Assembly (NCBI RefSeq): GCF_003308995.1
Contig: NZ_QFFJ01000001.1
Coordinates: forward strand, 3,081,605 to 3,113,604
Source: Chitinophaga flava
Lineage (GTDB): Bacteria > Bacteroidota > Bacteroidia > Chitinophagales > Chitinophagaceae
DNA: 32,000 nt
Direction: 5' to 3'
In this document: positions 5,126 to 29,668 of the stretch, in pieces
Layout of the letters: every line of letters starts with the position of its first letter
How positions within the stretch are numbered: the first letter of the stretch is position 1
Program-made: the position numbers and the translations under genes
Notes under the pieces: generated by a model
Told to the model about the DNA's origin: nothing
Database searches by the model: none
Seen by the model: only the letters and a program-made list of their open reading frames with translations

Positions 5126-8100
5126 ATGACGGATAACAGATATCAACATTTTGTAGCAACCGATGTACCGCTGGATGGGAGCAATCTGATAGAAGCCAGT
5201 GCAGGCACAGGGAAGACGTATTCCATCGCCATCCTGGTGCTGCGGCTGATATTGGAACAAAAGCTGTCTGTAAAGGACATCCTGATGGTGACCTTTACCA
5301 AAGCCGCTGTGGCCGAACTGGAAGACCGTATCCGGCTGTTTATCCGCAAGGCTTACACCGTCAGCTTCGGCAATCCCGTTGACGATGATACCATCGTCAA
5401 CCTGGTACTGAATGCCGTAGACCAGTGGGGCGCCGTAGAAGTCAACCACCGCCTGCGTGACGCCGTATTGTTACTCGACGAAACATCTGTTCTTACCATC
5501 CATAGCTTCTGTCAGCAAACACTGAATGAATTTGCCTTCGAAACAGACCAACTATTTGGCGCCGAAATGGTGCCGGACACCACACCCATCATTGAAGGCG
5601 AACTGAATAAATTCTGGCGCAGACACGTCACCACCTTACAGCCCATCCTACTGCAGTCTCTCTGGGGCGAGGATATGCGTAGCAATATCCTGCAGGTTTT
5701 GCAGGAACATCTCAGCGGGAAAAAATACCTGGGCTTCAACGCCAAAGAAGATTACCGCATCAATGTTACACAGCAGAACAGATGGCTGGAAGAACTATTC
5801 TCCCTCCGACAGCAGCAGACTGTAGCAGAAGGAGCTTTGCATCAGCATATCATCAACAACAGGGACGATCTAGCTTTCACCTGTAATACCAACACCTATG
5901 CAAGAAAAGGCATTCTTCCATTTATAGATAAACCTGCTGAATTTGCTGCAATCATTAAGAAAAAAAAGAATTCAGACTATATCCAGGAATTGTTTTCGGA
6001 CATCCTCGAACAACTGGAAGCAATAGATGCTTTCGACGAAACCGTCTCCCAGCATAAACAATCGCTGCATCAGCAACTCAACTGCCTCGCTATACAAGAA
6101 GTGATCACCGGCGTGCGCTCCCATAAGGAACGCAGTAACATGCTGAGTTATGACGACCTAATCAGTCATCTTAACCTGGCACTGGTACAAAAAGATAATC
6201 CTGGCCTGATAGCATCCCTGCAAAACAAATACAAAGCCGTGTTTGTGGATGAATTCCAGGATACCGATCGTCAACAGTATGAAATATTCAATCATGCTTT
6301 CGGCGAAAACACCATCCTGTTCTATATCGGTGATCCCAAACAAAGTATCTACGCCTGGCGTAAAGCGGATATTTTCACCTACTTCGATGCCCGCAACAGC
6401 GTTCAGCGTCTCTATGATATGAACCATAACTATCGTTCATCAGAGAACCTGATTGCTGCTATGAACCGCTTTTTCAAGCCTACTGAAAATTTCGACACCT
6501 TCGAGTTTGACGGTGAAAAAGATAGTATCCGGTATATTGATGTGATGGCGCCCGAAGAAAGCAGCAAAGGCTTTCTATACAGAGCTGAAGAAAAAGAGGT
6601 GCCCATCACCATCTACAACTGTAAAAACAAAGATGAAATTGCCAGTGCAGTAGCCGCGCAGGTAGCACAGCTGTTGCTCGATCCGGCCTACCGGATTGTA
6701 AAAGATAAAGCCCAGACGATCACTCCTTCCGATATTGGTATCCTTGTACGTACCGGAAAAGAAGGTAAAGATATCAAGCAAAAGCTGGCCCACCTGGGCA
6801 TTCCGGCGGTGACAATAGATGATACCAAAGTATTAAATACCGCCGAAGCCCTGGAAGTGCTGTATCTCCTGGAAGCGATGGAAACGCCGGAAAGGTCTAC
6901 CATCAACCGGGCGTTGCTGTCTCCTTTTACTGGTTTCAGTGTACAGGATATCCTCAATCTGGATGATGAAATAGCCCTCACCCGCTTCGGCAACTACCGC
7001 AATCTGTGGCAGGAAAACGGGGCCTATACAGCGCTCATGACGTTCATCGCCGACTTCGGCGTGCGCAATATCCTGCTAAGCGATCATTCCAAAAACGGAG
7101 AACGGGCTATTACCAACCTCTATCAGTTGACAGAACTGGTACACCAGGTGCAGAACCGTAAAAACCTGTCTATGCGCGACCTGATCTCCTGGCTCAAACG
7201 CGGTATAGATGGCATGTTGGTAGAAGGAGATGAGTACACCCAACGGGTGGAAAGTGATGAAGAAGCCGTGAATATCGTCACCATTCACAAGAGTAAAGGA
7301 CTGGATTACCGAATCGTACTAGTGCCCTACCTCGATTTCAGGAATAGTGATGCCGCTTTCATTAGTTTCAGAGATCCGGAAACCGGTGATTATATCAATG
7401 CAGAAGCTGCCCGTATCAGTCCTGAACAGAAAGCAGCCCAGCAAAGACAGCAGGTACAGGAAGACCGCCGTCTGATTTATGTGGCCATCACAAGGGCTGT
7501 GTACAAATGTTATCTCTTTAAAAATAACAGCAAGCTCGCTGCCGAATCCTCTTTTGCGAAATTCACCAGCGCCTTGCTGCTCAATCCCCCAGACCCTTCA
7601 TTAATTGAAGTGGTGGATGCTTTACCTGCGGAACCGGAACAGCGTTACCGCAAAAGCAAGCTGGCAATAGTCCGGAATATAGCACCTGCACCGGTATCCT
7701 TTTACCTCCGGGAAGAAAACTGGCGTAAGATGAGTTATACCATGCTGGCCGCCAAACCCGAACAGAAGCCCCGTATGCGCTCCGCCCAGCAGGAAAGCGA
7801 ATACGATAACTTCATTTTCCACACCCTGCGGAAAGGCGCCAAAACAGGGAATCTGCTGCACTTCATCTTCGAGAATATCAACTTCTCTGATGACAGCCAG
7901 TGGGATTACTGGATCAATGAAGCGATAGCCCGCTTTGTTCCCGGACAAGGAGAGGTATATCTGCCCATGCTGCAGCAGCTTTTACAGCATGTGATGCATG
8001 CCAACATCCAGATAGGCAAAAACCGCTTCCAGCTGGCTTCTGTAGGCAAATACAAACGGATGGCCGAACTGGAATTCGATTTCCCGGTGCCTGTTTTCAG

Positions 8101-8980: not shown

Positions 8981-9745
8981 ATGAGGATACTGTCCCTGAC
9001 CTTTGCCCTACTTCTTTTTGGCCTCGCCCTGCATGCACAGTCAGACACCGCACTTCTTCGTAAAGCATGGGTAGGACCGGAACTGGCCTATTTGAATTTT
9101 GATCAGAAAGGATACTCGATGGATTTCTATGGTCAATGGCCCCAAGATGGCGCTTATACGTTATTAGGGGATACACTCAGATTACACAAAATCAGATATT
9201 ATGGCGAAAAAAAGACCCTCTATGGCGATGGGGATTTTTTGATAAAACGACTCACCACAGATAGTCTGATCCTTGTTCCCATTAACTGGATGGCCAACAA
9301 AAAATTAAGAGGTCAGCCCATACTTTATTATAAAGATCAGGCGCTGACAGCTAAAAAGGATCTTCGTTTCGATAGCCTTGTTTTGAAATCCTCCCATTCC
9401 TATTCGTCCACCCCCACAATGGAAATACAGATAAATCAAAAGAAACAAGTGAAATTCAGCGGATTGATATATGTCATAAAGGATGGGAGTTATACAGATA
9501 TTTTACCAGATTCTACCTATCAGCAGCTGTTGTATCTTCTCAGCATATCTGAACTGGACCACTTAAAATCCTGGGGACAAGAGATACATGATGACAAGCC
9601 GCTTTCGTTACAAATATGGTACAATAACAAGATGATGCTTATTGAATGCAGGCGCTTTCCTATGGTAGCTGATAAACTGGAACAGCTTTTATTCAAGATA
9701 TCGGCAACAACAAAGTTAGAAAGATCTAGCTTTAGGTCATTGTAA
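8981..9745 (+). CDS. hypothetical secreted protein
   Basis: 254-aa ORF with a clear Sec signal peptide (MRILSLTFALLLFGLALHAQ). ATG start. I recognise no catalytic motif. Confidence 0.55.
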   Translation: MRILSLTFALLLFGLALHAQSDTALLRKAWVGPELAYLNFDQKGYSMDFYGQWPQDGAYTLLGDTLRLHKIRYYGEKKTLYGDGDFLIKRLTTDSLILVPINWMANKKLRGQPILYYKDQALTAKKDLRFDSLVLKSSHSYSSTPTMEIQINQKKQVKFSGLIYVIKDGSYTDILPDSTYQQLLYLLSISELDHLKSWGQEIHDDKPLSLQIWYNNKMMLIECRRFPMVADKLEQLLFKISATTKLERSSFRSL

Positions 9746-9811
9746 ATCCTTATCAATAGCAGATCTGACACTTTATAATATCCTGTGAAAATTTAAATAG
9801 ACCTTATATCA

Positions 9812-11038
9812 ATGAATACATCACAAATCGAAAATAAAATTTCGAAAGACAAAAATGTCCTTGTTGTTTTACAAGAAGAAGGAGCGGCAAATTCAGAAAT
9901 GCAGGATTTAATCGATAAATTTTGCGGAAAGGTAGTCAACAGTTTTTCTGAAATTCAGGCTAATCCAAGCGATACAAGAATCTACGTATGTGGCGACATA
10001 AGCAGTATCAAAGATGAGTTCGGCCCTTTATACATTATAAAAGAACTATCCAGTAATTACGAAAATAAAAATAATACGCACATCATCACACTTGGTGAAG
10101 TTCCTATTATCATTAGCAATGCCGGTGTATATTTTAGAAAACTATTTACTGATAACGATTATTTTGATAAGATCAAATCAGAGCATGAATTTCAGGAATT
10201 AACGGAGTCAAACAAACCATCCAAAGCATTTAGGAAAGGGATATACCTAACTAAAGTAACGAAAGCCGAAAATGAAGATGGGAGCGAAGTTCTGCACTAT
10301 CGCCTTTTGAGATGTTCAAGTAACTTAACCGGGCCTACTGATAATTTCCGCGCCACTGATCACAAAATCATCGATTCGTTGAATGAGGCTGTCAAATATG
10401 TTTTTGAGTATAAAACGGACCTGAATCATGTATTGGCACAGATATATGAAAACAGAATGAGAACAGAAGGCACTGATAAGGAAGTGAAATCAAGAATTAA
10501 AGCACATTCTGACAAAACCAAGGATATGCCACAGGATGGGCTTATTGTCTTTTGTACTTTTTACGACAACGTTGACATCAAACATCTGAAACCATCCGCC
10601 ACAGACAGATATGACAGGTGTTATAAAGAAGTGAGTGGTTTAACAAAGCTTCACTTCAAATTAAAAAGCACTGTTAATGATGATTCATTGGAAAAAGAAT
10701 TCAGTGTTACCTTATATCCTAATTCTGTATTCATGATTCCACTTTCTACCAATAGATTATACACACACGAAATCAGACCATCTATGCTGAATGCTGACAG
10801 CATTCCAACAAGATTGGGCTATGTAGTTCGTTGCTCCAATCTGGAAGCTCAGCATGTGAATAACCAAACTTACATCAGAGAAAATAACAACTTCATTAAA
10901 CTGGAGAAAATGACTCCGGAAACACAGGAGGATTTAAGAAGTTTTTACAAAGAAGAAAATAAATCAGAGCAGGTTATCAAATACGGAAAAATTCATTTCA
11001 GCATGAATTCAGGTGACTATGAAAAACCAATATTTTAA
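9812..11038 (+). CDS. 2OG-Fe(II) dioxygenase-like protein (AlkB-like fold) with unrecognised N-terminal extension
   Basis: 408-aa ORF in the AT-rich block. The C-terminal ~220 aa carry NHVLAQIYEN, KAHSDKTKD (HxD, nt 10505-10513), GLIVFCTFYDN, LYTHEIRPS (distal His, nt 10766-10768) and RLGYVVRCS (candidate 2OG-binding Arg). It is paralogous to the next ORF (shared LSTN and F-C/S-x-Y-D/E-N). The N-terminal ~100-190 aa has no motif I recognise. Confidence 0.6.
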   Translation: MNTSQIENKISKDKNVLVVLQEEGAANSEMQDLIDKFCGKVVNSFSEIQANPSDTRIYVCGDISSIKDEFGPLYIIKELSSNYENKNNTHIITLGEVPIIISNAGVYFRKLFTDNDYFDKIKSEHEFQELTESNKPSKAFRKGIYLTKVTKAENEDGSEVLHYRLLRCSSNLTGPTDNFRATDHKIIDSLNEAVKYVFEYKTDLNHVLAQIYENRMRTEGTDKEVKSRIKAHSDKTKDMPQDGLIVFCTFYDNVDIKHLKPSATDRYDRCYKEVSGLTKLHFKLKSTVNDDSLEKEFSVTLYPNSVFMIPLSTNRLYTHEIRPSMLNADSIPTRLGYVVRCSNLEAQHVNNQTYIRENNNFIKLEKMTPETQEDLRSFYKEENKSEQVIKYGKIHFSMNSGDYEKPIF

Positions 11039-11058
11039 CGTAAACCCGTGGCAAAGAG

Positions 11059-11853
11059 ATGATGATCAGTTCTGAGTTTAACAAAATTACGCTTGATTTA
11101 GAAACCAATTTATTCAATGAATTACTGAGCGCAACAGACTTTGAACCTGTTGCTAAAGGCAGAATCGGCAATCACCTGGTAAAGATGGACGGCAATCGTA
11201 TCCCGATAGTGAGAACTACTACAAAATACAATATACCCGCTCATGATTTTTCCGCCATTCATAACATGCTTGTTGAGTGCATCAATGATTCTATTAGAAA
11301 GAGTAACCTGGAAGACATACCTGCGCTGCATTTTAATAATGCCTTAATAGAAGTCTATGATGCCAGTTATTCCAAAATGAATTATCATTCAGACCAAAAT
11401 CTGGATTTGGATAATGATTCATACATAGGACTTTTTTCCTGTTATGAAAACCCGGAAGAACTTTCAGCGCAGCACATTAGGAAACTAAAGATAAAAGATA
11501 AAGTAAGCGAAGAAGAGCAGGAGTATTCGTTAACACATAATTCGGTCATACTGTTTTCATTATCCACCAACACAAAGTTCCTGCATAAAATTGTCCTGGA
11601 TGCTGCTCCAAAACCATTGGTACCAGACAATAAATGGCTAGGCATTACATTCCGGACATCAAAAACGTATATTCAATTTGAGGATGATTTACCTCGTTTT
11701 GCCAATGGGAAATTATTGGAATTAGCGAATAAGGAACAGGAAACAGCGTTTTACAAGCTGAGAGGGGAAGAGAACCGAAATCTGAATTTCGTTTATCCGG
11801 ATCTAATATATACTGTAAATGCAGGAGATACCATGAAACCAAAGCACAGTTGA
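11059..11853 (+). CDS. AlkB-like 2OG-Fe(II) dioxygenase
   Basis: 264-aa ORF starting 20 nt after the previous stop. Motifs are IPIVRTTTKY, NNALIEVYD, NYHSDQNLD (HxD, nt 11386-11394), SYIGLFSCYEN, KFLHKIVL (His, nt 11584-11586) and WLGITFRTSK (Arg, nt 11653-11655). Their order and spacing are as in AlkB/ALKBH-type dioxygenases. Confidence 0.65.
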   Translation: MMISSEFNKITLDLETNLFNELLSATDFEPVAKGRIGNHLVKMDGNRIPIVRTTTKYNIPAHDFSAIHNMLVECINDSIRKSNLEDIPALHFNNALIEVYDASYSKMNYHSDQNLDLDNDSYIGLFSCYENPEELSAQHIRKLKIKDKVSEEEQEYSLTHNSVILFSLSTNTKFLHKIVLDAAPKPLVPDNKWLGITFRTSKTYIQFEDDLPRFANGKLLELANKEQETAFYKLRGEENRNLNFVYPDLIYTVNAGDTMKPKHS

Positions 11854-11874
11854 TTGGTTCAGGCGCTCTATCAG

Positions 11875-11947
11875 AGCGGAAGACGGGACTCGAACCCGCT
11901 ACCTACAGCTTGGGAAGCTGTCGCTCTACCAGGTGAGCTACTTCCGC
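11875..11947 (-). tRNA. tRNA-Gly: tRNA-Gly (anticodon CCC)
   Basis: The reverse complement folds as a 73-nt cloverleaf. Acceptor GCGGAAG/CTTCCGC; D-arm GCTC-ACCTGGTA-GAGC; anticodon arm ACAGC-TTCCCAA-GCTGT (anticodon CCC). Variable loop AGGTA; T-arm GCGGG-TTCGAGT-CCCGT; discriminator U. CCA is not encoded. Confidence 0.93.
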
Positions 11948-11986
11948 AGGTATCTCTCTAAAGATAAAAAAAATACCCATAAAAAC

Positions 11987-12016
11987 GGGGCCGTCTCAGA
12001 AGTAATTCCGGGCCCC
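11987..12016 (-). terminator. GC-rich hairpin with T-run between repeat copy 1 and the tRNA (possible terminator insulating the tRNA)
   Basis: On the minus strand it reads GGGGCC-(18 nt)-GGCCCC followed by GTTTTTATGGGTATTTTTTTT. The stem is only 6 bp and the loop is large, so this call is weak. Confidence 0.3.
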
Positions 12017-12117
12017 TTAGATTTAGCCTGACTGGATTTATTTATGCACTTCGTATGTGCATCCTCAAAAACCGAAAAAGAAAAAGGGTGCCTCAAATTT
12101 ACTTTTGAGACACCCTC
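12015..12117. repeat. 103-bp direct repeat, copy 1 (left boundary of the hydrolase/AraC cassette)
   Basis: CCTTAGATTTAGCCTGACTGGATTTATTTATGCACTTCGTATGTGCATCCTCAAAAACCGAAAAAGAAAAAGGGTGCCTCAAATTTACTTTTGAGACACCCTC recurs at 14419-14521 with 2 mismatches. The flanks outside the 103 bp are unrelated. Confidence 0.9.
12075..12116 (-). terminator. intrinsic terminator inside repeat copy 1 (downstream of the epoxide hydrolase)
   Basis: The minus strand reads AGGGTGTCTCAAA-AGTAAA-TTTGAGGCACCCT (13-bp stem with one C/A mismatch) followed by TTTTTCTTTTTC. It lies 88 nt downstream of the hydrolase stop. Confidence 0.5.
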
Positions 12118-12204
12118 CAGTAATGAAGACTTGAGGAGATTCGGCCCACAGTCGGTGATAACACTTATGCCAGTCGGAGAAACAGGCTCAGCGCAGAAAT
12201 GCGA

Positions 12205-13323
12205 TCACATTTTCCCAAAGAATCCGACAAGCTCCCTGGAATAGATCTCAGGCTGTTCCATCGCTGCAAAATGACCTCCTTTGCCCAGTATATTGAAGCT
12301 TACGACATTGGCCATCCTTTCCGCCCATTCTTTAGGGAATTGGGCTTCCTTGGGAAACAGCGACACCCCCGTTGGTACACCTACCCGTTGGGAAGATTGC
12401 AGCCCCCCCATATAACCGGCGCGAGCATTCTCTGCATATGTTCTGATGGACGAATTAATGGATTGGCTTATCCAGTAGATCATAATGTTTGTGATCAGTG
12501 TGTCCATGCTAAGGCAATTTTCGAGATTTCCATCATTGTCACTCCAGGCATGGAATTTTTCGATGATCCAGGAGGCCAGTCCCACGGGGCTGTCGTTGAG
12601 CCCATAACCCAGGGTTTGTGGCTTAGTTGACTGGATCATATTAAACGCGCCTTCTGTAAAGAACCAATGTTGTATTTGTTGCCCAAACGCCTGTTCGGCG
12701 GGGGTCATCGTTCCCCAGTCCTCGCTGCCGTTGGGATAACCTACATCCGTTAAATGAATAGCCTTTACATTGCCCGGGAACTGCACTGCCAGTGACTTCG
12801 TGATCAAAGTACCCATATCACCGCCTGCGGCAAAGTAGGTGGAATATCCCAGTACTTCTGTCATGAGTTTGTTGAACAGGGCTGCCGTCCTATCGCTATT
12901 CAGGGCCGTTTGTTGGGAGAATCCAAACCCGGGTATGGAAGGGATCACGAGGTCATAAGAACGTCCGCCTTCAGTTGGATCGGTCAGCATTGGAATAATC
13001 GGGAGAAAGCGATAGAATGAGTCTGGCCATCCATGGCTCAGGATCAGCGGCGAGGTATTTTTTCCCTGGCCTTTTACATAAATGAAATGAATGGTAATGC
13101 CGTCTATTTCGGTCTTGTATTGGGGAAACTGGTTGATCTCTGCTTCGTGGGTTCTCCAATCGTACTCTGTCTGCCAATAGTGCACCAGTTCCCGCAAATA
13201 CCCCGGATTGGTGCCATAATTCCACCCGGCATTTTCAGGTTCATCCGTCCACCTGGTTTGTTTTAGTCTTGCTGATAGATCGTTAAGTGTCTCTTGCGGT
13301 ACATTAATGCTAAAAGGGTTCAT
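12205..13323 (-). CDS. epoxide hydrolase (alpha/beta hydrolase with EHN-type N-terminal domain)
   Basis: MNPFSINVPQETLNDLSARLKQTRWTDE matches the microsomal-type epoxide hydrolase N-terminal pattern, and HGWPDSFYRF matches the HGWPGS oxyanion-hole motif. The track start at 13353 is a TTG codon; I prefer the ATG at 13323 (372 aa). Confidence 0.8.
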   Translation of the reverse strand: MNPFSINVPQETLNDLSARLKQTRWTDEPENAGWNYGTNPGYLRELVHYWQTEYDWRTHEAEINQFPQYKTEIDGITIHFIYVKGQGKNTSPLILSHGWPDSFYRFLPIIPMLTDPTEGGRSYDLVIPSIPGFGFSQQTALNSDRTAALFNKLMTEVLGYSTYFAAGGDMGTLITKSLAVQFPGNVKAIHLTDVGYPNGSEDWGTMTPAEQAFGQQIQHWFFTEGAFNMIQSTKPQTLGYGLNDSPVGLASWIIEKFHAWSDNDGNLENCLSMDTLITNIMIYWISQSINSSIRTYAENARAGYMGGLQSSQRVGVPTGVSLFPKEAQFPKEWAERMANVVSFNILGKGGHFAAMEQPEIYSRELVGFFGKM

Positions 13324-19014: not shown

Positions 19015-20118
19015 TCATACCCGCCCCAGCAGCATGGCTTCGTCGGAGAAATTACGGTAGGCCCTTCCATTACCGAATCCTTCAGGGTTGATGGCATGGG
19101 CTTTTTTTCTGTTACGGAAAAAAACTTTTCGGCCCAGATAAATGGCCCGTTGCAACAGAAAAGTATCCCGCAACGCACCGGATGTGATCCGGTAAAAGGT
19201 ACGCTGATCGTCGGCAGACAGGGCGTCATTGGTCTCCCGGGTTAGTTGCAGGTATTTATGACCGTTTTCCCTGTATAGCTGTATGATATTGTCTGTTTCC
19301 CGATAGGTGCCGGTATATCGTTTTTTAGGCTTCAGTTCATCATCTGTGCTCTGATAGTGCAACAGGTCTCTGTCTACATAAAAACGTTCAAATGTGTGGT
19401 CATTCTGCAGGCATATCACCTCTGAAGTATCTTCACAATAGTGGCCTACCAGCAGATCGGTCATCCGGGTGGTTGTAAAACCGGAGGCGATGCGCATGGT
19501 ATCATCATGGCGGATGGCCTGCAGATAGGCCGGGTCACGGATGATGACCTTCTTTTTGCCATTGGCCACCAGACGGCCTTTGAAGTCCTGATCTTCATAA
19601 CCGTAGTCCATCACGCTCTCATCATATCCACGGAGCGCATTAAAATCGTCCCGGAGAACGCAGATGCGGCCTTGTACGTCCCACCATTTTTTGCCTGGGC
19701 CGATACCAGCCGGCGACATAAAACAAGGATACTCCCGGAGAAAAGTCTGATGAATATATGTTGCAAAGCCTTGTCCGGTGTAGTTATCAGCGTCTACGCT
19801 ACAGAGGATATCGCCGGAAGCCAGCCGGAAAGCCATATTCTTGGCATGGCTCATATGAAAATAAGCAGGGTCCGGATTATGATAGTATACCACTACACCT
19901 GATTCGATATAAGGCCGCAGTTCCTGTCGGGCCCATTGGTCCAGATCATCCCGGGAACCGTAGTTCAATAGCACAAATTCCAGCGGACTATAACCGGCAT
20001 TGTCCTGGATGTTTTGAAGCAGTGTTTTTTTCAGGTGCATGGTCCGGTTCATACACACCGTGCAGAAAGATATTTTATGTTGCAACATTTTCTTTAATGG
20101 GTGAGATGCATTTAGCAT
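19015..20118 (-). CDS. GT2-like (GT-A fold) glycosyltransferase with C-terminal extension
   Basis: ISFCTVCMNR, EFVLLNYGSRDD and AKNMAFRLASGDILCSVDADNY (DxD) follow the family-2 glycosyltransferase pattern. The C-terminal ~170 aa is unassigned. Confidence 0.6.
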   Translation of the reverse strand: MLNASHPLKKMLQHKISFCTVCMNRTMHLKKTLLQNIQDNAGYSPLEFVLLNYGSRDDLDQWARQELRPYIESGVVVYYHNPDPAYFHMSHAKNMAFRLASGDILCSVDADNYTGQGFATYIHQTFLREYPCFMSPAGIGPGKKWWDVQGRICVLRDDFNALRGYDESVMDYGYEDQDFKGRLVANGKKKVIIRDPAYLQAIRHDDTMRIASGFTTTRMTDLLVGHYCEDTSEVICLQNDHTFERFYVDRDLLHYQSTDDELKPKKRYTGTYRETDNIIQLYRENGHKYLQLTRETNDALSADDQRTFYRITSGALRDTFLLQRAIYLGRKVFFRNRKKAHAINPEGFGNGRAYRNFSDEAMLLGRV

Positions 20119-21652: not shown

Positions 21653-22498
21653 ATGAAACATTTTCTTCTTATTGTAGCAGCACCATTCGTTTGTACCTTA
21701 ACCACCCAGGCACAAACTCTTGACAACGTTTTAAAGAATGGTAATACAACTACCGAAACCATCATTACTTCGAATGCAGAAGGCCTGAAAATAGCAAACA
21801 ACAATGCCTTTATATCAGGCTGGAATGCTCAAAACACTGCCAGGACAGGCTATTTGCAGTTCAACTCTTCAGGGAACATATCACTGTCTGCCGAGGGCGC
21901 CAGAAGTATTCTTTTACTGACCAATCAACAACCCAGAGTTACTATAACAGAAAATGGTTATGTAGGGATTGGTACAACACGGCCCGCGCAGAAATTTGTA
22001 GTTTCCAATAACGAACAGGAAGGACTGGAGGTCTATCTTGAAAACAATGGCATCGTAGGGCTACAAGCCTATAACCGGCAAACGTCCCACTATATGCCTA
22101 TGTATATCGATGCCTCCCATCTTGCCATCACATACGGCAGTGTAAGTATTGGCACACCTTCTCCCAAATCAGAACTTACTGTTAACGGCACTATCACCAC
22201 AAAAAAAATAAAAGTCACTGCCGAAAACTGGCCCGACTATGTATTTCGTAAAGACTACGTACTCCCTTCCTTACAGGATGTGGAAAACTTTATAACTACC
22301 CGTCAGCACTTGCCAGGCATTCCTGCTGCCGCTACCGTAGAAAAGGAAGGGCTGGAACTGGGAGAAATCAACCAGAAGCTGCTGCAGAAAATTGAAGAAC
22401 TAACGCTATACCTGATTGATGAACATAAAAAAAATAAAGAACTGGAAAAACAGGTTTCTTTATTGAATGAACGACTAACAAAACTGGAGCGGCCATAA
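21653..22498 (+). CDS. secreted fibre-like protein with conserved C-terminal WPDYVF...HLPGIP module and coiled coil
   Basis: Signal peptide MKHFLLIVAAPFVCTLTTQAQ. The C-terminus (NWPDYVFRKDYVLPSLQDVENFITTRQHLPGIPAAATVEKEGLELGEINQKLLQKIEELTLYLI) is a module I recall from Bacteroidota proteins annotated as tail-fibre-domain or hypothetical. Confidence 0.5.
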   Translation: MKHFLLIVAAPFVCTLTTQAQTLDNVLKNGNTTTETIITSNAEGLKIANNNAFISGWNAQNTARTGYLQFNSSGNISLSAEGARSILLLTNQQPRVTITENGYVGIGTTRPAQKFVVSNNEQEGLEVYLENNGIVGLQAYNRQTSHYMPMYIDASHLAITYGSVSIGTPSPKSELTVNGTITTKKIKVTAENWPDYVFRKDYVLPSLQDVENFITTRQHLPGIPAAATVEKEGLELGEINQKLLQKIEELTLYLIDEHKKNKELEKQVSLLNERLTKLERP

Positions 22499-22693
22499 TC
22501 GTGAACCAGACACATGACAAGTTTGAGTTTTTCCTAAAATCTGCTTATTTATGTAATTTTACCTGCTTTTACAACGCTCATCGTTGCAAAATCCATAAAC
22601 CATGCTTATCCAAGGGGAACCTGGTTCATCCCGAACAATTCGGTATACCTGTGCCTATTTCCAAGATCGCATCCAAATTAAAACACAACAAAA

Positions 22694-23482
22694 ATGGTTG
22701 TACTAACAAAACTCTACGGTCAAACCAGCAACAACTTTTTACAATTTATACACCTGGATTCATTTTGCAGGGAAAACAATATCCCTTTCCATAGTCCCTA
22801 TTTCAGGAAATATTTTGATCAGTATCCTGCATTGCAGTCTTATGGTGTTAACTATTCGAAAGTGCTGATGAAGTTTTTCATCAGAACGAAACTGTATAAA
22901 GAATTTAGTTTTGTTGATGACACTCAGATTTCTGCTTATAAAAATGCGATCCTTACGAGAAAACGATTGTTTTGTGAAGGCTGGTACTTCAGCAGCAAAG
23001 AAACTGTTGAAAAAAACAGAAGCCTTTATCAGCAGCTATTTACACCAAACATCGATCAGCAGGATTTCCACAATAAATACCTGAAAAAAGAAAATAATGA
23101 AACCATCATTGGTGTTCATATCCGTCGTGGTGATTACAAAGAGTTCCAGGGTGGTGAATATTATTTTGAAGATGATGTTTATATTGATAAAATAAAACAG
23201 CTGTTGAACAACCTGAATACGCCACATAAGGTGATCATCTTCACTAATGATGATGCGCTGAATAAAGCTAATTACACGCAGCATTTTAATGTGTTGTTCT
23301 CAGAAAATCCAGTGCATGTTGACCATTTCCTGATGTCACGCTGTGACTACCTGATCGGGCCTGTGAGCTCATTTTCGTTATGGGCCAGTTATATCGGAGA
23401 AACACCTTTATTTCATATTCGTACAGCCAATGACGTTGTCACGCTGGACAAATTCAAAATTTGCGACGGAAACTGGTTTTAA
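22694..23482 (+). CDS. GT11-like (alpha-1,2-fucosyltransferase-like) glycosyltransferase
   Basis: GVHIRRGDY (the HxRRGDY signature), IIFTNDD, and DHFLMSRCDYLIGPVSSFSLWASYIG (compare D..LMS.C.h.I.sNSTFSWWaAyL in GT11). The N-terminus VVLTKLYGQTSNNFLQFIH parallels GGLGNQMFQYA. Confidence 0.55.
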   Translation: MVVLTKLYGQTSNNFLQFIHLDSFCRENNIPFHSPYFRKYFDQYPALQSYGVNYSKVLMKFFIRTKLYKEFSFVDDTQISAYKNAILTRKRLFCEGWYFSSKETVEKNRSLYQQLFTPNIDQQDFHNKYLKKENNETIIGVHIRRGDYKEFQGGEYYFEDDVYIDKIKQLLNNLNTPHKVIIFTNDDALNKANYTQHFNVLFSENPVHVDHFLMSRCDYLIGPVSSFSLWASYIGETPLFHIRTANDVVTLDKFKICDGNWF

Positions 23483-23505
23483 ACAAAACCAGTTTCTTGT
23501 TTTTC
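23471..23505 (+). terminator. intrinsic terminator overlapping the GT11-like stop codon
   Basis: Perfect 10-bp stem AACTGGTTTT / AAAACCAGTT with 4-nt loop AAAC (the stop TAA lies at 23480-23482), followed by TCTTGTTTTT. Confidence 0.55.
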
Positions 23506-23632
23506 AGATAAACTTATCTTATATTTAAATATCTATCCAACGATTCATATCAGAATAACCGTCACATAAAACGTACCTGTAATTTTTCCTGATTATCCAC
23601 GATTTTCATTTATAACCCAAAATCCAAACATC

Positions 23633-23815
23633 ATGAAAAAGAAAAAAGTAACCCTCAATCCCAAACTGTTCATCAACAAACTTACTATCACTTCCTTAAC
23701 CACAGAACAACAGGAGAAAGTGGCTGGTGGCGCAACTGCAGGTGTTATCTGCATGACCACCGAGACACGTCGTCCAACTGATTGTTCTGCTACTCCAAAT
23801 CACGCTTGCTGCTGA
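23633..23815 (+). CDS. RiPP/bacteriocin-like precursor peptide with Bacteroidetes-type double-glycine leader and Cys/Thr-rich core
   Basis: 60 aa. The leader is MKKKKVTLNPKLFINKLTITSLTTEQQEKVAGG (GG at nt 23726-23731). The 27-aa core ATAGVICMTTETRRPTDCSATPNHACC has 4 Cys and 7 Ser/Thr. ATG start, its own upstream AT-rich region, and a hairpin downstream. Confidence 0.6.
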   Translation: MKKKKVTLNPKLFINKLTITSLTTEQQEKVAGGATAGVICMTTETRRPTDCSATPNHACC

Positions 23816-23841
23816 TATCAGTAGTCTAAGTTCTTATTTGA

Positions 23842-23902
23842 GTATCCCCGTTTCGGAAGGTGATTTGGTTTTCAGGTAAGATCATCCTCCGAATGGGGAT
23901 AC
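23842..23902 (+). terminator. long imperfect stem-loop after the peptide gene (possible terminator/attenuator)
   Basis: GTATCCCC-G-TTTCGGAAGG ... CCTCCGAA-T-GGGGATAC gives about 16 paired positions with bulges and a ~25-nt loop, then CTTGTGTTTGT. It starts 27 nt after the stop. Confidence 0.4.
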
Positions 23903-23958
23903 TTGTGTTTGTAAGATTACAAACTACCACGCCACTTAGTAACTTTATCAAATTACTT

Positions 23959-24042
23959 ATGCCAGTTTTCTCCGGACTGGCTGCTGGTATCATCTTGATA
24001 GTCATGTATATGCCTATGTCTATTTTATGGCAAACACTCTAA
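23959..24042 (+). CDS. possible 27-aa hydrophobic micropeptide (speculative)
   Basis: ATG-initiated MPVFSGLAAGIILIVMYMPMSILWQTL is a single predicted TM helix. There is no clear RBS or promoter. It is in frame with the GTG-started 60-aa track ORF at 23860. Confidence 0.2.
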   Translation: MPVFSGLAAGIILIVMYMPMSILWQTL

Positions 24043-24364
24043 TAATTTCAACCAGGTTATCTACTGGAAAGGAATGTTGTACAATACTGGCTAATTAATT
24101 ACATTCGTATTAGTTCCTTTTACCCATTATCTGTGCTCAAATTTTCATGAGCCCTATATCATTGTAACTTTTAAATTATCACCTATATCTTATGTTTAAA
24201 TGTGAGTATGCACTGATATTTTCCTGAGGGATATCCCCCTTTATATGTTGGCCCAGCAGTAGCTTATTGTAGCTGAGTGTTCCCGGATTTGTATCTTTTT
24301 TATGCCATCATATCAGCGTTACAATCAATCAAACATCTCTAGTTCTTAATCTAAAAATCCCTAT

Positions 24365-27300
24365 ATGATCACTAGCAAAGAACGGCTTAGAAAACATCTT
24401 GCGATGTTTTTCCTTGCTCTTCTGGTTTACCAGATTGGATTTCCAGCTGCAGCCTATGCACTTACTTCCGGGCCCACAGCACCGGAAGCTACCAGTTTTG
24501 AGCCTGTGGATACTACAGATATGGTAAATCTTCAAACCGGAGATTTCACCTATAACCTTCCATTATTAGAAGTACCGGGTCCGGAAGGAGGCTACCCATT
24601 ATCATTATCTTATCATGCCGGTATTCAGGTAGGAGAAGATGCAAGCTGGACGGGACTCGGATGGACGCTGAATCCCGGAGCAATTACCCGTAACGTAAAC
24701 GGCTATCCGGATGACTGGTTTTCAGAAACACAATTAAGAAGAGATTATTGGGAAGGTGGTCAAACCAATACTTATAACGTAGGCGTCAGCGTTGGTATCG
24801 CCAATACGCCGGCCACTGTTAGTTTTGGCCTTGCTTTTTCCCAGGACACCTACCAGGGATTTGGTGTTGGTGGCAGTGTGGGAGTAGGCGCTAACTACGG
24901 CCCTCTTCATATCGGTGCAGAAGTAGGAGTGACCCCATTTGGGCAATCATATCAGTCTATAGGCTTCAGCGCTTCCACTTCATCCGGTGGAAGTCTGGGT
25001 GTATCTGTAAGCGGTGGGCTTTCCACCAGCGGCGGATATGCCGGTGTGAGCGCAGGAAATTCTTTCCTGGGTGCCAGTATGGGAACAAATGGTCTTTCTA
25101 TGATTGTTGGAGAAGGTATCACTGGTACTACCAATAATGACAGGTCAGGGGAGATCTCTACTAAATCCAGCGGTCTTTCTGTAGATATCCCTATCGGATA
25201 TGTTAATATAAGGCTGGGGTATAACCACACCCGTTACTGGTCAGATGAGAATGTTAATATACCCGCTCACGGCAGCTTGAATCTCACCGGCTGGAATATG
25301 CTGGACAATCATGCCTATGATTGTTATTCCCTGCTAAACTATGATCCCGCCAACTATAACGCCACTAATATCGTCGATAACAGCGACCCGGATGTATTGC
25401 AGGGTGGCACCTTTCCGGATTATGACAACTATGTTGTGACCGCTCAGGGTCTTGCCGGCACCATGCGGCCTTATGGCTTCCAGAACTACGTGGCAAGGCA
25501 AAACAGAAGCAATAGCAACCGTACTACGATTATGTACGTATGTCCCGGGCAAACCAATACCTTTAATATGCTGGGTAAGCAGCCCCAGTTCAGGTTTGAT
25601 AACGACTTCTCCAATCAATACCGCCAGAATTTCAACGATATTGATGTGGTAAATGTATATGCCATGAATCTGCCGGCTCCATTTGACCCAAATCCCGTTT
25701 ATGGAAATAATGATGGTACTTATGGTTATAACACGGCTACCACACAGCTCGCAGGTTCCCGCAGTATTCGTACGATAGATTATGCCACACTCTTCGGAGC
25801 CAGTGATAAGAAGGGATTCCTGTATCCATCAGGAACAACCGGTTTTGTGTATAATTCCGCACTGGCTAAAAGCATAGGAGGATTTGCGGTCACAAACAGC
25901 AGCGGTGTAACCTACCACTACAGTTTGCCTGCCTATTCCTATAATGAAAGCATTTACTCTGAAAAAATAGATCCTTCTAAAGGACCAGGGCAAAGTAAAA
26001 GCTTTAACCGTCAGGTAAAACCGGGTAAGTATGCTTATACCTGGTACCTGACAGGTGTTACAGGCCCCGATTATGTTGACAAGAATAATAATGGCATTCT
26101 TGATGAAGGCGACTGGGGATACTGGGTAAAGTTTGAATATGGTAAATGGACAGATACCTATTGCTGGAGAAATCCGGAAACAGGCTTTGCTCCCGATATT
26201 GATAACAAATTCCAGAATGCATCAAAGGGACAAAAAGAAGTTTATTACCTCAATGCCATCAAAACAAGGAGCCATACAGCCTTGTTTGTGAAAGATCTCC
26301 GTACAGATGCGCGTGGAGCTTCGCCCACCATTATGCAAAGCACAGGTGATACAGAAAGTGTTGGAGCCTATGATGGCAACTCTGCCTATAGCCTCAGCCT
26401 GAATCGCATCCTGTTGTATAACAATGCAGATCTTCCTGCTTTGAATATGAACAGCAGTAGTGAACTGAATATCGCAGCACATTACGCAGGCAATGTATTA
26501 GATAAGTACGACGTGGCAGATCCCAGCTTCCTGCAGAAAGCATTCAGAGTGATTGACTTCAAATATGATCTCAGCCTTTGTTTTTATACGCCAAATAGTT
26601 TCAGCGGAAGTTCAACCCGCGTGACAGCTGGTAAGCTGACCTTAAATCAGTTAGTAGTACGCGGCAAAGGTGGGGCCTGTATGCTCCCTTCAACAGATTT
26701 TCAATATGAAGTGGATGATACAAATATGGGCACCATCACAGCCTCCACTGCACCAGGAAGCAATAGTATCGGAAACATTACCTGCTCCAATATCGCAAAC
26801 GGCCAGTATAACGTAGGTGATATTCTCAATATTTATATAGGTCGCGGACGCTATAGCGGAGTGATCACAAAAAAATATTCGGCTACTTCATATGACGTGA
26901 AATACTTCCCGGGTATGGCGTCCGGAGGTGGCTCCGGCACTTGTTACATTACAAAAAATCCAATCTATCTGCAGGATGCAAAAGATATCTGGGGATTGTA
27001 CAAATCTGATTATGATGCCGCTGCTTATGCACAAAACAGCAATATTGGTGGTGCAAGAACCTATGCTTCTGCAGGAAGTGCGGATGCATGGTCTCTCAGA
27101 AAAATCACTACGCAACTGGGAGCCAAGATTAGAGTGGAGTATGAATCAGATGTATACAACAAGGCAGTATTAAATAGCTCTTCATCATCTGTTATCAACA
27201 ATTTTAGTTACAACTCAACCACCAAGCAGCTGAGCTTTAAGGTTAACAGCATTGGAGATGGTTTGTCTCTGAGTAATACCTATAAGGTGGGCACAAAATT

Positions 27301-29668
27301 AAACGCATTATTGATACAACCTGCAGATATTACTATACAGTCTAAAAACAGTGATGGTAGCTCTTGGCCGCTGACCATTTTGGATGGAGATCAATATGTT
27401 ACAAGAACGGCCATCCTGGGAGGGAATGAATTTGTGATAACAGCAGTGGATGATGTTAATAAGACTATTACTGTTAACTGCTCTACACTTAATGAGCTAA
27501 ATATTCCAAATACAGTCCCCAATACCGATGTTATTAAGGTTGAGTGTAAAGTCTATTCTACAGGAAATCTTTTCTACAGCAACGATTTCAACCGCCCAGG
27601 CGGTGGTCTTAGGGTGAAAACACTTTCCGTACAGTCTACACAGAATACTGCTACCACGATGTATGACTACTCCAATGCCGACAATCCCGCAATTAGTTCA
27701 GGGGTAACCTCATACGAACCATCTGTATTTGATTATTGCGAGGTATCCCGTTATCCAGCGGTTGCGAGTGGCGAAAATCAGTATAAAAAAGAACTGTACA
27801 AGAATATCAACTACCTGCTTACTATTGCCAGGGAGGTTACTCCTCCCGGAGTAGTGTATAAGAATGTATCCGTTCGTACAAAAGTGACTTCTCCTGATGG
27901 TACAGAACGCGCTACAGCAGGGCGTACTGTTTATGAATTTGAGGTATTCAATGAAAACATGATTTCACGTCATAAAGTCGGTTTGGGAACTACCTCCGGC
28001 TATTATCATAATAATCCAAGCTCCGGAAGTCTGAATGTCGGTAACAACCAGACAATTCAGAACCTAACAGCTGCCGTAGGATTATTAAAACGGACAACCA
28101 CTTATGATGTGAATGATAAACCATTGGCCAGTACTAACTATATGTTTGAGCATGGCACTTTTGGTTCACCCAACCCTGCTTTCCTGGATATCTATTACAA
28201 TGGTTTAAATAAGTACAATTACCAGGGTGTTACTTCGGAGAGATCTTTTGAAGAAAAATACGTGTATAATCCAGCCACCAGCCAGAATAAGGTAATGCTG
28301 ACCATGAGTGCAAAAGAAACTTATCCGGTAATACCCACAGGTGTAACAACAACAGATTATAAAACGGGAACATCCACTGCCAAATACTATAATGGATACG
28401 ACTTCTATAGTGGAGAGATTACTAAAACTGTCACAAGGGATATTTACGGTAACGCATTTGCTACCGAAGTCATTCCCGCCTACAGGAAGTATCCTCAAAT
28501 GGGGCTGATGGTCAATAATAGTGCTAACAAGAATATGCTGACTCAAACTGCCGGCTCATATACTTATGTGCTGGGCAATGGTGTAAATGCAGGCGTAGTC
28601 AGTGCGAGCGCAACCATCTGGGGAAATCAGACTCCGGTACTCAATCCTGATAACAGTGGAACTACATTGGTCCAAAACACTTCATCCGTTGGTAATGTAT
28701 GGAGAAAACAACAGGAATACATCTGGCGTCCGGATGTAATCAAACCTGATGGAGTAGTGCCTATGGCGGAATTTACAGACATCAACTGGACCAATCCGCT
28801 GGCATCCAATTCCGCGTGGAAAAAAGCAGTAGAGGTAACATTGTACAGCGCCAATTCCCACCCATTGGAAACTGTAGACATCAACGGTGCTTATGGCGCA
28901 ACCAAATATGGATACAAAGATAGCCGCAAGGTGCTGACAGTTACACCAGCTCAGTACAGCCAGGTTGCTTTCTCCGGTGCTGAAGATGAGTTGATCGGAT
29001 CTGCGTTCAGCTCAGGAGTGAATCCTGGTGATGGAACCATTGAAACCAGCACCACCTTCCCTGCAACCCTGGCACATACGGGGTATAACAGCCTTCGTAC
29101 AGCAGCTGCCAAACAAGGTTTTAACTATACCGTTCCTGTTGCTGCCTCACAACTGAATGTACAATACCAGGCAAGTGTTTGGGTAAAAAGTGTAGCTGGT
29201 GGCCAGCCCTCAGCTAATATCTATTACCAGGTGAATGGTGGCACCCCAACACCGGCAACAGTAACGGCTACACGTAAGTCCGGCGACTGGTACTTATTGA
29301 CCTTGGTAACGCCCACCTCTGCTTCAGCCAGTGCTGGCTCCAGCATTAAATTCGGATGCACTAATACAGGTGCAACAGATGTGGTATTTGATGATTTCAG
29401 AGTACATCCGGTAAGCGCCAGCTCGACTGCTTTCGTATATGATAAAACCAGTGGAGAATTAACTTACATACTGGACAATAAGAATATCTATACCAGATAT
29501 AATTATGATTCAGGCGGGAAATTAATCGGTACTTATAAGGAAATTATTGGAACTGGCGAGAAGAAAGTCTATGAGTATGAATATAATTATGGCAAAGGCT
29601 GTATCGCTGCCAATAATTTGAGCATCCCCAAAGTAGATTTTTATAAACAGCATTTTGGGTTGATATAA
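24365..29668 (+). CDS. giant secreted protein with SpvB/TcaC-like N-terminal domain, G/S/V-rich low-complexity segment and C-terminal CBM-like jelly-roll
   Basis: 1767 aa with signal peptide HLAMFFLALLVYQIGFPAAAYA. The N-terminus (TSGPTAPEATSFEPVDTTDMVNLQTGDFTYNLPLLEVPGPEGGYPLSLSYHAGIQVGEDASWTGLGWTLNPGAITRN) follows the SpvB/TcB N-terminal pattern. AHTGYNSLR...WVKS...VVFDDFRVHP (nt ~29070-29410) resembles CBM4/9-type modules. The C-terminus has a YD-like repeat (YTRYNYDSGGKLIGTY). Confidence 0.7.
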   Translation: MITSKERLRKHLAMFFLALLVYQIGFPAAAYALTSGPTAPEATSFEPVDTTDMVNLQTGDFTYNLPLLEVPGPEGGYPLSLSYHAGIQVGEDASWTGLGWTLNPGAITRNVNGYPDDWFSETQLRRDYWEGGQTNTYNVGVSVGIANTPATVSFGLAFSQDTYQGFGVGGSVGVGANYGPLHIGAEVGVTPFGQSYQSIGFSASTSSGGSLGVSVSGGLSTSGGYAGVSAGNSFLGASMGTNGLSMIVGEGITGTTNNDRSGEISTKSSGLSVDIPIGYVNIRLGYNHTRYWSDENVNIPAHGSLNLTGWNMLDNHAYDCYSLLNYDPANYNATNIVDNSDPDVLQGGTFPDYDNYVVTAQGLAGTMRPYGFQNYVARQNRSNSNRTTIMYVCPGQTNTFNMLGKQPQFRFDNDFSNQYRQNFNDIDVVNVYAMNLPAPFDPNPVYGNNDGTYGYNTATTQLAGSRSIRTIDYATLFGASDKKGFLYPSGTTGFVYNSALAKSIGGFAVTNSSGVTYHYSLPAYSYNESIYSEKIDPSKGPGQSKSFNRQVKPGKYAYTWYLTGVTGPDYVDKNNNGILDEGDWGYWVKFEYGKWTDTYCWRNPETGFAPDIDNKFQNASKGQKEVYYLNAIKTRSHTALFVKDLRTDARGASPTIMQSTGDTESVGAYDGNSAYSLSLNRILLYNNADLPALNMNSSSELNIAAHYAGNVLDKYDVADPSFLQKAFRVIDFKYDLSLCFYTPNSFSGSSTRVTAGKLTLNQLVVRGKGGACMLPSTDFQYEVDDTNMGTITASTAPGSNSIGNITCSNIANGQYNVGDILNIYIGRGRYSGVITKKYSATSYDVKYFPGMASGGGSGTCYITKNPIYLQDAKDIWGLYKSDYDAAAYAQNSNIGGARTYASAGSADAWSLRKITTQLGAKIRVEYESDVYNKAVLNSSSSSVINNFSYNSTTKQLSFKVNSIGDGLSLSNTYKVGTKLNALLIQPADITIQSKNSDGSSWPLTILDGDQYVTRTAILGGNEFVITAVDDVNKTITVNCSTLNELNIPNTVPNTDVIKVECKVYSTGNLFYSNDFNRPGGGLRVKTLSVQSTQNTATTMYDYSNADNPAISSGVTSYEPSVFDYCEVSRYPAVASGENQYKKELYKNINYLLTIAREVTPPGVVYKNVSVRTKVTSPDGTERATAGRTVYEFEVFNENMISRHKVGLGTTSGYYHNNPSSGSLNVGNNQTIQNLTAAVGLLKRTTTYDVNDKPLASTNYMFEHGTFGSPNPAFLDIYYNGLNKYNYQGVTSERSFEEKYVYNPATSQNKVMLTMSAKETYPVIPTGVTTTDYKTGTSTAKYYNGYDFYSGEITKTVTRDIYGNAFATEVIPAYRKYPQMGLMVNNSANKNMLTQTAGSYTYVLGNGVNAGVVSASATIWGNQTPVLNPDNSGTTLVQNTSSVGNVWRKQQEYIWRPDVIKPDGVVPMAEFTDINWTNPLASNSAWKKAVEVTLYSANSHPLETVDINGAYGATKYGYKDSRKVLTVTPAQYSQVAFSGAEDELIGSAFSSGVNPGDGTIETSTTFPATLAHTGYNSLRTAAAKQGFNYTVPVAASQLNVQYQASVWVKSVAGGQPSANIYYQVNGGTPTPATVTATRKSGDWYLLTLVTPTSASASAGSSIKFGCTNTGATDVVFDDFRVHPVSASSTAFVYDKTSGELTYILDNKNIYTRYNYDSGGKLIGTYKEIIGTGEKKVYEYEYNYGKGCIAANNLSIPKVDFYKQHFGLI

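Follow-up and report, generated by a model that had tools for sequence, protein, structure and literature searches.

Gene layout and fold of the A and B proteins

This study concerns two adjacent genes, termed A and B, in a window of 32,000 nucleotides (nt) of Chitinophaga flava (GCF_003308995.1, NZ_QFFJ01000001.1, positions 3,081,605–3,113,604, forward strand), to which all unlabelled coordinates below refer. Open reading frame (ORF) A occupies 9812–11038 on the forward strand and encodes 408 amino acids (aa), and ORF B, encoding an AlkB-fold dioxygenase paralog of 264 aa, follows on the same strand at 11059–11853 after a spacer of 20 nt (11039–11058). Residues 1–115 of A (9812–10156) form a family-specific alpha/beta domain, delimited by the secondary structure of an AlphaFold2 (AF2) model, and residues 116–408 (10157–11038) form a double-stranded beta-helix (DSBH) of the AlkB fold, as assigned by Foldseek, conserved residues and motif mapping to E. 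coli AlkB; B was assigned by the Pfam family PF13532, AF2, Foldseek and conserved residues. The right-hand boundary of this two-gene module is a tRNA-Gly(CCC) gene on the reverse strand (11874–11947; ARAGORN, Rfam 67.4 bits), a neighbouring host gene outside the module whose 3′ end faces the stop codon of B across 20 nt. A first-pass annotation of the window had described two co-directional ORFs 20 nt apart, in agreement with these coordinates, and the HxD...H...R signature and shared motifs that it quoted are all present in the translations. Its distance of 22 nt to the tRNA was essentially right, and the extra N-terminal domain that it had given as roughly 100–190 aa in A does exist, with a length of about 115 aa and a predicted alpha/beta structure.

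The intergenic segment at 9746–9811 on the forward strand presumably contains the ORF A promoter together with its 5′ leader, and blastn homology to other copies of the module starts within it at about 9787–9795 (9795 against locus L001, 9787 against L015). A sigma-70-like TTATCA-18-TATAAT lies upstream of ORF A at 9750–9779, and boxes of the Bacteroidota −7 type were seen by eye upstream of A orthologues; we infer from such sequence signals that the promoter of ORF A would lie in 9746–9811. A promoter and terminator scan of the module gave match counts no higher than those in shuffles. Since no terminator-like site was found in the 20-nt spacer (11039–11058), A and B are presumably co-transcribed. 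The distance between the two genes in relatives is 3–30 nt, or the genes overlap.

ORF A is 100% identical to a C. flava protein annotated as ‘hypothetical protein’, and the cluster nearest to B is annotated as ‘alpha-ketoglutarate-dependent dioxygenase AlkB’. B passes the cut-off of PF13532 (2OG-FeII_Oxy_2; 37.5 bits, cut-off 31.2), A has no Pfam match at E ≤ 1 and so does not reach that cut-off, and neither protein was matched in a scan of NCBIfam or, at E ≤ 1, by any family of the PADLOC-DB 2.0 defence models. The proposal that A and B are paralogs was borne out by BLASTP (E 2e-11, 25% identity, A118–406 / B7–261) and by hhalign of the A family alignment against the B family alignment (95.9% probability, E 5e-9). 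This profile–profile alignment includes a C-terminal extension of about 60 aa common to A and B, consisting of a beta-hairpin, a helix and then the pattern ‘...EN...Y...GD..P’, for which canonical E. coli AlkB (216 aa) is too short.

The AF2 models reached a predicted local distance difference test (pLDDT) of 78.8 and a predicted template modelling score (pTM) of 0.84 for A, and a pLDDT of 94.3 and a pTM of 0.92 for B. When these models were searched against PDB with Foldseek, the best match was ALKBH2 in both cases (A: 3rzj, E 1.7e-7, TM-score 0.64–0.69 normalised to the target; B: 3btz, E 2.6e-9, TM-score 0.66), and the top 50 matches of each model all belonged to the AlkB family (ALKBH2, ALKBH3, E. 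coli AlkB, ALKBH5, ALKBH6/7, FTO, NMAD-1 and Ofd2). TauD, PhyH, DOXC and TET/JBP appeared neither in the top 50 of either model nor as Pfam matches, and a small-molecule hydroxylase family (TauD/PhyH) was ruled out for A and B by Pfam and the Foldseek top 50. In a viral structure library, AlkB-like proteins of giant viruses and plant RNA viruses were structural neighbours of A and B. At the sequence level, phmmer of B against all PDB chains gave no match at E ≤ 10, and the family profiles A1 and A2 gave none at E ≤ 1, ALKBH5 included; hhalign of the B family (A2) against E. coli AlkB gave 0.1% probability, a weak test with one lone sequence as the template. It is thus supported that A and B are paralogous AlkB-fold Fe(II) dioxygenases of the nucleic-acid type; this placement, already put forward in the first-pass annotation, follows from PF13532 for B and Foldseek for both proteins, with no small-molecule hydroxylase family in the profile and fold searches.

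The N-terminal domain of A carries the conserved residues F37-C-G39, Y58-x-C-G61-D, S80, P98 and G105. It has no equivalent in B, the alignment between the two proteins beginning at A118, and some giant-virus forms (P0386, P0332) have a shorter version of it or none. A profile of this domain (A4, 24 sequences) found no credible relative in PDB or Pfam. A histone match in the PDB profile search (E 0.5) and scattered single matches of individual members to Pfam (BRCT at E 0.17 and similar) were rejected as noise.

Active-site residues were mapped by motif alignment onto the E. coli AlkB sequence, without structural superposition, because hhalign against that lone sequence was uninformative, and conservation was counted in alignments of 253 sequences for A and 191 for B, which came from bacteria, protists and giant-virus contigs. 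AlkB H131-x-D133 and H187 correspond to H232-x-D234 and H319 in A and to H110-x-D112 and H176 in B; N120-x-Y122 corresponds to Q210-x-Y212 in A and E98-x-Y100 in B, and R204-x5-R210 to R334-x5-R340 in A and W193-x5-R199 in B. The mapped residues of A are kept in 250–253 of the 253 sequences, the exceptions being alignment gaps and one Y-to-F change (iron triad: H232 and D234 in 252, H319 in 250, the remainder alignment gaps), and those of B in 190–191 of 191, with H110, D112 and H176 in all. The AlkB order of HxD...H...R that had been claimed for both proteins therefore holds for the triad and the last Arg, but B is without the first Arg of R-x5-R.

In AlkB crystal structures, residues N120, Y122, R204 and R210 belong to the pocket that holds 2-oxoglutarate (2OG). 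A largely fits this pattern of N-x-Y and R-x5-R, with Gln in place of N120, whereas B does not, since Glu98 and Trp193, at the positions of AlkB N120 and R204, are invariant across the 191 sequences. Because the AlkB-type R-x5-R is kept, A probably uses 2OG by analogy with AlkB. The co-substrate pocket of B, as predicted from Glu98 and Trp193, is non-canonical, and the invariant residues R35, R52, R141 and K/R177 are candidate alternative 2OG binders.

Linkage of A and B across genomes

Species genomes, annotated assemblies, IMG/VR and metagenomes yielded 107 loci, each of which was scored with the A and B profiles. The two genes were co-directional and adjacent, A then B, in 52 loci, convergent and adjacent in 31, convergent at 1.5–3.1 kb in 2 and divergent in 1; they were fused as A–B in 6 and as B–A in 2, and A alone was found in 13. 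Eight of the 13 A-only loci are uninformative, because the contig stops within 320 nt of A, and in about 95% of the informative loci A and B are adjacent or fused. Four loci (L002, L010, L079 and L085) have A with 1.8–8 kb of flanking sequence and no B in it; either B lies elsewhere in the genome or A works alone in some lineages. In a Niastella metagenome-assembled genome (MAG; L011:1450–2166), codons 1–222 of A run straight into the final 55 nt of B; this locus is an internal-deletion remnant and shows that the module can decay.

An exhaustive profile search brought the family to at least 617 clusters at 50% identity, many of which are proteins of 650–1100 aa, and every one of these that was inspected is an A–B or B–A fusion. 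Named A–B fusions come from eukaryotes (the dinoflagellate Polarella glacialis, Chromera velia and MMETSP/EukProt transcriptomes) and from bacteria (Nannocystis, and Myxococcota, Cyanobacteria, Planctomycetaceae and Pseudomonadales MAGs), and in the actinomycete Embleya A and B are overlapping genes. In 122 A–B fusions one domain envelope follows directly on the other (median linker length, 0 residues). The convergent pairs and B–A fusions lie on AT-rich contigs (median 26% G+C) that carry FNIP-repeat, F-box, RING, kinase and aminoacyl-tRNA-synthetase genes, one of these contigs being a catalogued giant-virus MAG. Adjacency or fusion thus ranges over Bacteroidota, Actinomycetota, Myxococcota, Cyanobacteria, Planctomycetota, alveolate algae and giant viruses.

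Since the linkage persists across three orientations and through fusions in both orders, A and B function together, and they very probably constitute an obligate pair of AlkB-fold enzymes. The idea that they are ‘possibly a heteromer’, raised in the first-pass annotation, is backed by the same adjacency and fusions across phyla. As a separate observation, 14 A–B fusions (P0409, P0393, P0394, P0429 and 10 others) begin with a conserved hydrophobic helix (e.g. LVAGLATLAVGIAVR) followed by basic residues, suggesting that the dinoflagellate-type fusions are membrane-anchored in these eukaryotes; the bacterial A–B fusions are without such a helix.

To the sides of the module, all ORFs within 6 kb were clustered over 89 dereplicated locus groups. 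The flanking genes differ in each lineage examined: GH106 and GT87 in Filimonas, a beta-lactamase and a siderophore cluster in Chitinophaga sp. S165 (L015), a sigma factor and an acetyltransferase in Chryseobacterium, a FAD monooxygenase and AraC in Xanthocytophaga, HEPN, PIN-TPR-GreABC and Mrr_cat in Flavobacterium Fl-77, kinase, Ank and RCC1 genes in Nannocystis, and NB-ARC-WD40 (STAND), Uma2, PIN and a caspase-KAP NTPase in a cyanobacterial MAG. L024 has FAAL-ACP-aminotransferase directly upstream of the pair and IS91 and an integrase nearby, and L022 has FA_hydroxylase. No gene besides A and B is conserved across the loci, and none is required.

The sole informative recurrent partner in this clustering is an Endonuclease V (EndoV) of about 170 aa, found on the same strand in 11 Bacteroidota loci (L004, L014, L029, L030, L032, L033, L034, L036, L041, L044 and L083; e.g. 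L014:7400–7909 and L029:9000–9527), directly 5′ of A in 5 and directly 3′ of B in 6. Three representatives scored 37.8–47.8 bits against PF04493 (cut-off 23.4), and a PDB search matched 3goc at E 7e-5; the protein is shortened: it sets in near position 22 of the Pfam model, and the usual N-terminal segment is absent. EndoV joins the pair in about one fifth of the Bacteroidota loci and is absent from the C. flava window, so the earlier statement that no nuclease partner is present holds for the window but not for the family. Because the position of EndoV shifts while its adjacency stays, the link goes beyond inherited synteny. Endonuclease V handles deaminated bases, and its presence is a link between the module and the processing of bases damaged by deamination.

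Composition, boundaries and probable transfer of the module

The upstream neighbours of the module in C. flava are recD-recC-recB, a PTH2 peptidyl-tRNA hydrolase and a DUF6438 protein, and the downstream neighbours are an epoxide hydrolase, an AraC regulator, a TonB-dependent receptor and a two-component system (histidine kinase, HK, and response regulator, RR); these surroundings are ordinary chromosomal DNA. The low G+C content noticed for the pair was confirmed by computation: the pair has a G+C fraction of 0.362 against 0.453 in the remainder of the window, and the G+C fraction at third codon positions (GC3) is 0.347 for A and 0.374 for B against 0.48–0.58 for recD/C/B, PTH2, epoxide hydrolase, AraC, TonB, HK and RR. 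Since the dip sits at synonymous positions, the anomaly that had been counted by hand is a real compositional one.

Homology of the window to other Chitinophagaceae copies amounts to 78–80% nt identity from 9787/9795 to 11851 and then ends; beyond about 25 nt from the A/B genes, relatives no longer show nucleotide homology, so the transferable unit is A and B with a leader of about 20 nt. In Chitinophaga sp. S165 the module lies at a different locus. The module in C. flava is thus a 2.06-kb compositionally foreign insertion between the DUF6438 gene and tRNA-Gly, and that it was acquired horizontally is likely, its source probably being transfer within Bacteroidota. The earlier view of the pair as foreign and not syntenic core is in line with the S165 locus, the abrupt end of homology and the GC3 deviation. 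Low G+C is also found in the S165 and Flavihumibacter copies and is not found in those of Filimonas, Flavobacterium and Chryseobacterium, where either the host genome itself is AT-rich or the copy has equilibrated. In a Flavihumibacter-labelled MAG (L001:7324–7881) and Chitinophaga sp. S165 (L015:3–560), the DNA downstream of the pair is 91% identical, and an insertion or deletion of about 7.3 kb lies just upstream of the pair.

The first-pass annotation had taken the tRNA gene for the classic insertion side of an island, and this was not sustained. No integrase or recombinase was found in the low-GC stretch, which holds A and B only, or among the neighbours DUF6438, PTH2, recBCD, epoxide hydrolase and AraC; a search of 9400–12300 for att sites gave only chance-level repeats of 12–22 nt, none involving the tRNA 3′ end; and a search for inverted repeats around the module gave chance-level matches only. 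Among the other 106 loci an abutting tRNA occurs only in L103, where a tRNA-Gly(CCC) gene (7208–7281, ARAGORN) sits between the two genes and shares their strand (L103:5743–8051), on a virus- or eukaryote-like contig with an F-box protein, ORFans and RNase_T. This tRNA and that of the window have the same anticodon and agree only at universal tRNA positions, and two abutting tRNAs in 89 groups are about the base rate by a rough estimate; the shared anticodon is probably a post-hoc coincidence. Because there is no integrase, no tRNA-end repeat and no comparable abutting bacterial tRNA in the 106 other loci, the tRNA is not evidence of a tRNA-targeted island: its adjacency is incidental, and it marks the insertion boundary with no sign of a tRNA-targeting element.

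As for vehicles, a tblastn search of a phage collection (50,697 records) gave no match to the module. Carriage on plasmids was set aside as well, the matches in a plasmid collection being chromosome-sized actinomycete replicons only. Homologous recombination after transformation would be one plausible way for a two-gene cassette to move without mobility genes.

Several further features of the window were recorded. The DUF6438 gene just 5′ of the module (8981–9745) has an intermediate composition (G+C 0.407, GC3 0.435) and does not travel with the pair elsewhere, giving no tblastn match in L001–L011. The gap between the B stop codon and the tRNA is bridged by a small inverted repeat (GCGCTCT / AGAGCG, 11863–11878), which overlaps the tRNA 3′ end; judged by its sequence, it could be a shared terminator or processing signal. 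The tRNA was the only match in an Rfam scan of the whole window. A second low-GC stretch at 22400–24600 (0.36–0.39) holds a GT11-type glycosyltransferase gene (22694–23482), near which a GT2 glycosyltransferase is encoded at 19015–20118, and this region looks like a polysaccharide-synthesis locus from its gene content. An ORF of 1767 aa at 24365–29668 has no Pfam match at E ≤ 0.001.

Proposed function and comparison with known systems

We propose that A and B are the two subunits of a self-contained, horizontally mobile AlkB-family Fe(II) oxygenase that acts on nucleic-acid bases, a statement that in its full form we consider evenly balanced between acceptance and doubt. The two proteins would pair physically, probably as a heterodimer, as their linkage suggests, and would divide the labour, A being the conventional 2OG-dependent subunit and B taking a specialised role. 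The putative substrate would be a DNA or RNA base carrying damage or a modification, oxidised in a manner analogous to AlkB-type direct reversal. As to whether the pair serves repair, defence or counter-defence, the evidence leans to repair.

Several observations weigh against this proposal. Four to five loci hold A without an adjacent B, and B is without the AlkB Arg and Asn and, by comparison with AlkB, may be no 2OG enzyme at all. Both proteins are mildly acidic (median isoelectric point 5.7 for A and 6.0 for B versus 7.7 for E. coli AlkB), which is not typical of avid nucleic-acid binders. An N-terminal membrane anchor is present in 14 of the 122 A–B fusions, including the dinoflagellate ones (Polarella), and would be surprising for a DNA repair enzyme. 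The EndoV link comprises 11 loci in about 6 dereplicated groups, all within Bacteroidota. Regarding mobility, low G+C is common to Chitinophagaceae copies elsewhere and may therefore be a property of the module, not a mark of recent arrival.

The acidity, the non-canonical pocket of B and the anchor of the dinoflagellate-type fusions would also fit a pair whose substrate is a small metabolite, a lipid or the side chain of a protein, with the AlkB fold reused as proposed for ALKBH4 and ALKBH7. Lipid or secondary-metabolism contexts (FAAL-ACP-aminotransferase in L024, FA_hydroxylase in L022 and the siderophore cluster in L015) point the same way, and the N-terminal domain of A could bind a ligand other than nucleic acid. 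However, none of these neighbours recurs, the sole recurrent partner, EndoV, is a nucleic-acid enzyme, the top 50 structures are all nucleic-acid-acting AlkB members or their close relatives with no TauD, PhyH or DOXC, and AlkB-like repair genes are common in giant viruses; we consider such a substrate unlikely. If a nucleic acid is the target, the pair might write or erase a regular RNA modification instead of repairing damage, on the model of ALKBH8 and ALKBH1, which hydroxylate or oxidise tRNA wobble bases in eukaryotes. Two differing active sites would suit a two-step oxidation, giant-virus contigs with the module also have translation genes such as that for an aminoacyl-tRNA synthetase, and a tRNA-Gly(CCC) gene touches the module in two unrelated loci; but the last point is post hoc, near the base rate and concerns unrelated tRNAs, the neighbour clustering revealed no linked methyltransferase or other modification enzyme, and a distribution that is patchy even inside a genus, together with a foreign composition, is unlike that of a core translation factor, which makes this role improbable.

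The patchy, mobile distribution and AT-rich composition would fit a module of anti-virus defence or counter-defence, in which bases of invading or host nucleic acid are oxidised and EndoV is an optional effector cutting the altered base. Defence-type neighbours of the pair in Flavobacterium Fl-77 (HEPN, PIN-TPR-GreABC, Mrr_cat) and in the cyanobacterial MAG (NB-ARC-WD40, Uma2, PIN, caspase-KAP NTPase), IS91 and the integrase near the pair in L024 and the presence of the module in giant viruses add to this case. We nevertheless judge it quite unlikely, given that neither PADLOC nor the 50,697 phage records gave a match, that the contexts are mostly ordinary metabolic or housekeeping ones, including recBCD, PTH2 and epoxide hydrolase in the window, that no defence gene recurs in the neighbour clustering, and that protist nuclear genomes and transcriptomes encode the pair with an organelle- or membrane-type anchor, a better fit to cellular maintenance. 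Within repair itself, A and B might be independent AlkB-type enzymes with complementary lesion or strand preferences (cf. ALKBH2/ALKBH3 and group 1/2 AlkBs), linked for co-expression without forming a complex. Both iron sites are intact, A stands alone in a few loci, the convergent genes of giant-virus contigs are not co-transcribed, and bacteria with two AlkBs split their specificities between methyl and etheno adducts (PMC2790896). Set against this are a linkage that is near-universal and kept through changes of orientation, fusions in both orders essentially without a linker, and the lack of the canonical 2OG-anchoring residues of B in 191 of 191 sequences, unlike an ordinary stand-alone AlkB; we regard independent action as rather unlikely.

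Going beyond the proposed two-subunit oxygenase, A and B might represent an unrecognised class of obligate two-component AlkB-fold oxygenases, in which a 2OG-dependent A and a B that uses another co-substrate or takes the product of A would jointly perform a two-step base oxidation beyond the reach of any single AlkB, and which would have spread horizontally from soil Bacteroidota to dinoflagellates and giant viruses; this extension we hold to be doubtful. A literature search on paired or tandem AlkB, on AlkB in giant viruses or dinoflagellates and on EndoV–AlkB operons gave no description of the A and B family, many matches concerning the unrelated alkane hydroxylase AlkB, and the family is apparently undescribed.

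The AlkB family serves as the model for how base damage in DNA and RNA is directly reversed and how the two nucleic acids are demethylated, and to our knowledge every characterised member acts through a single catalytic domain. In the A and B family, two differing AlkB-type active sites are locked together, one of which is without the usual residues that hold 2OG. If A and B cooperate, this would be a new architecture, and possibly new chemistry, for a heavily studied group of enzymes; it would also assign a role to gene A, a widespread ‘hypothetical protein’, and explain why the ‘AlkB’ (B) of many Bacteroidota genomes is never alone. With a module of two genes and natural single-chain fusions, the proposal is directly testable.

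Among known systems, E. coli AlkB and ALKBH2/3 come closest: their DSBH fold is the best structural match of A and B, and the His-x-Asp...His triad and last Arg stand in the same order, A also keeping the R-x5-R spacing. They differ in that no sequence-level match joins A or B to solved AlkB/ALKBH chains, in that the A and B genes are two linked or fused paralogs, and in the C-terminal extension of about 60 aa (A and B) and the N-terminal domain of 115 aa (A). Moreover, E. coli AlkB N120 is Gln in A and Glu in B, R204 is Trp in B, and the pair is without an Ada-type regulatory context. Proteins of the Tpa1/Ofd1/OGFOD1 type resemble the fused forms in having two tandem DSBH domains in one polypeptide. 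Their second domain is not known to be catalytic and their substrate is a ribosomal protein, whereas A and B both keep the iron triad and have their fold matches in the AlkB branch.

Two AlkB-type enzymes per genome, with the idea of a divided substrate range, are also found in bacteria having two AlkB genes (groups 1A, 1B, 2A and 2B); there, however, van den Born et al. 2009 (PMC2790896) found the genes unlinked, with no preference for any combination, whereas A and B are a fixed set, both beyond sequence-search reach of E. coli AlkB. Some homologues of the ciliate ALKBH5-type N6-methyladenine (6mA) demethylase DMT3 have two tandem AlkB domains (PMC12974511) and thereby show that protist AlkB-family proteins are able to carry two; as members of the ALKBH5 clade they were set aside as candidates for the A and B family, by description, and the profiles find no ALKBH5 chain, ALKBH5 being a lower-ranked structural match. 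AlkBs of giant viruses and plant RNA viruses are structural neighbours, and giant-virus contigs hold true members of the family, but annotated viral AlkBs are single-domain whereas the viral A and B are convergent pairs or B–A fusions. Set beside AlkB, ALKBH2 and ALKBH3, A and B agree in fold and metal site and differ in their obligate pairing, their extensions and the pocket of B.

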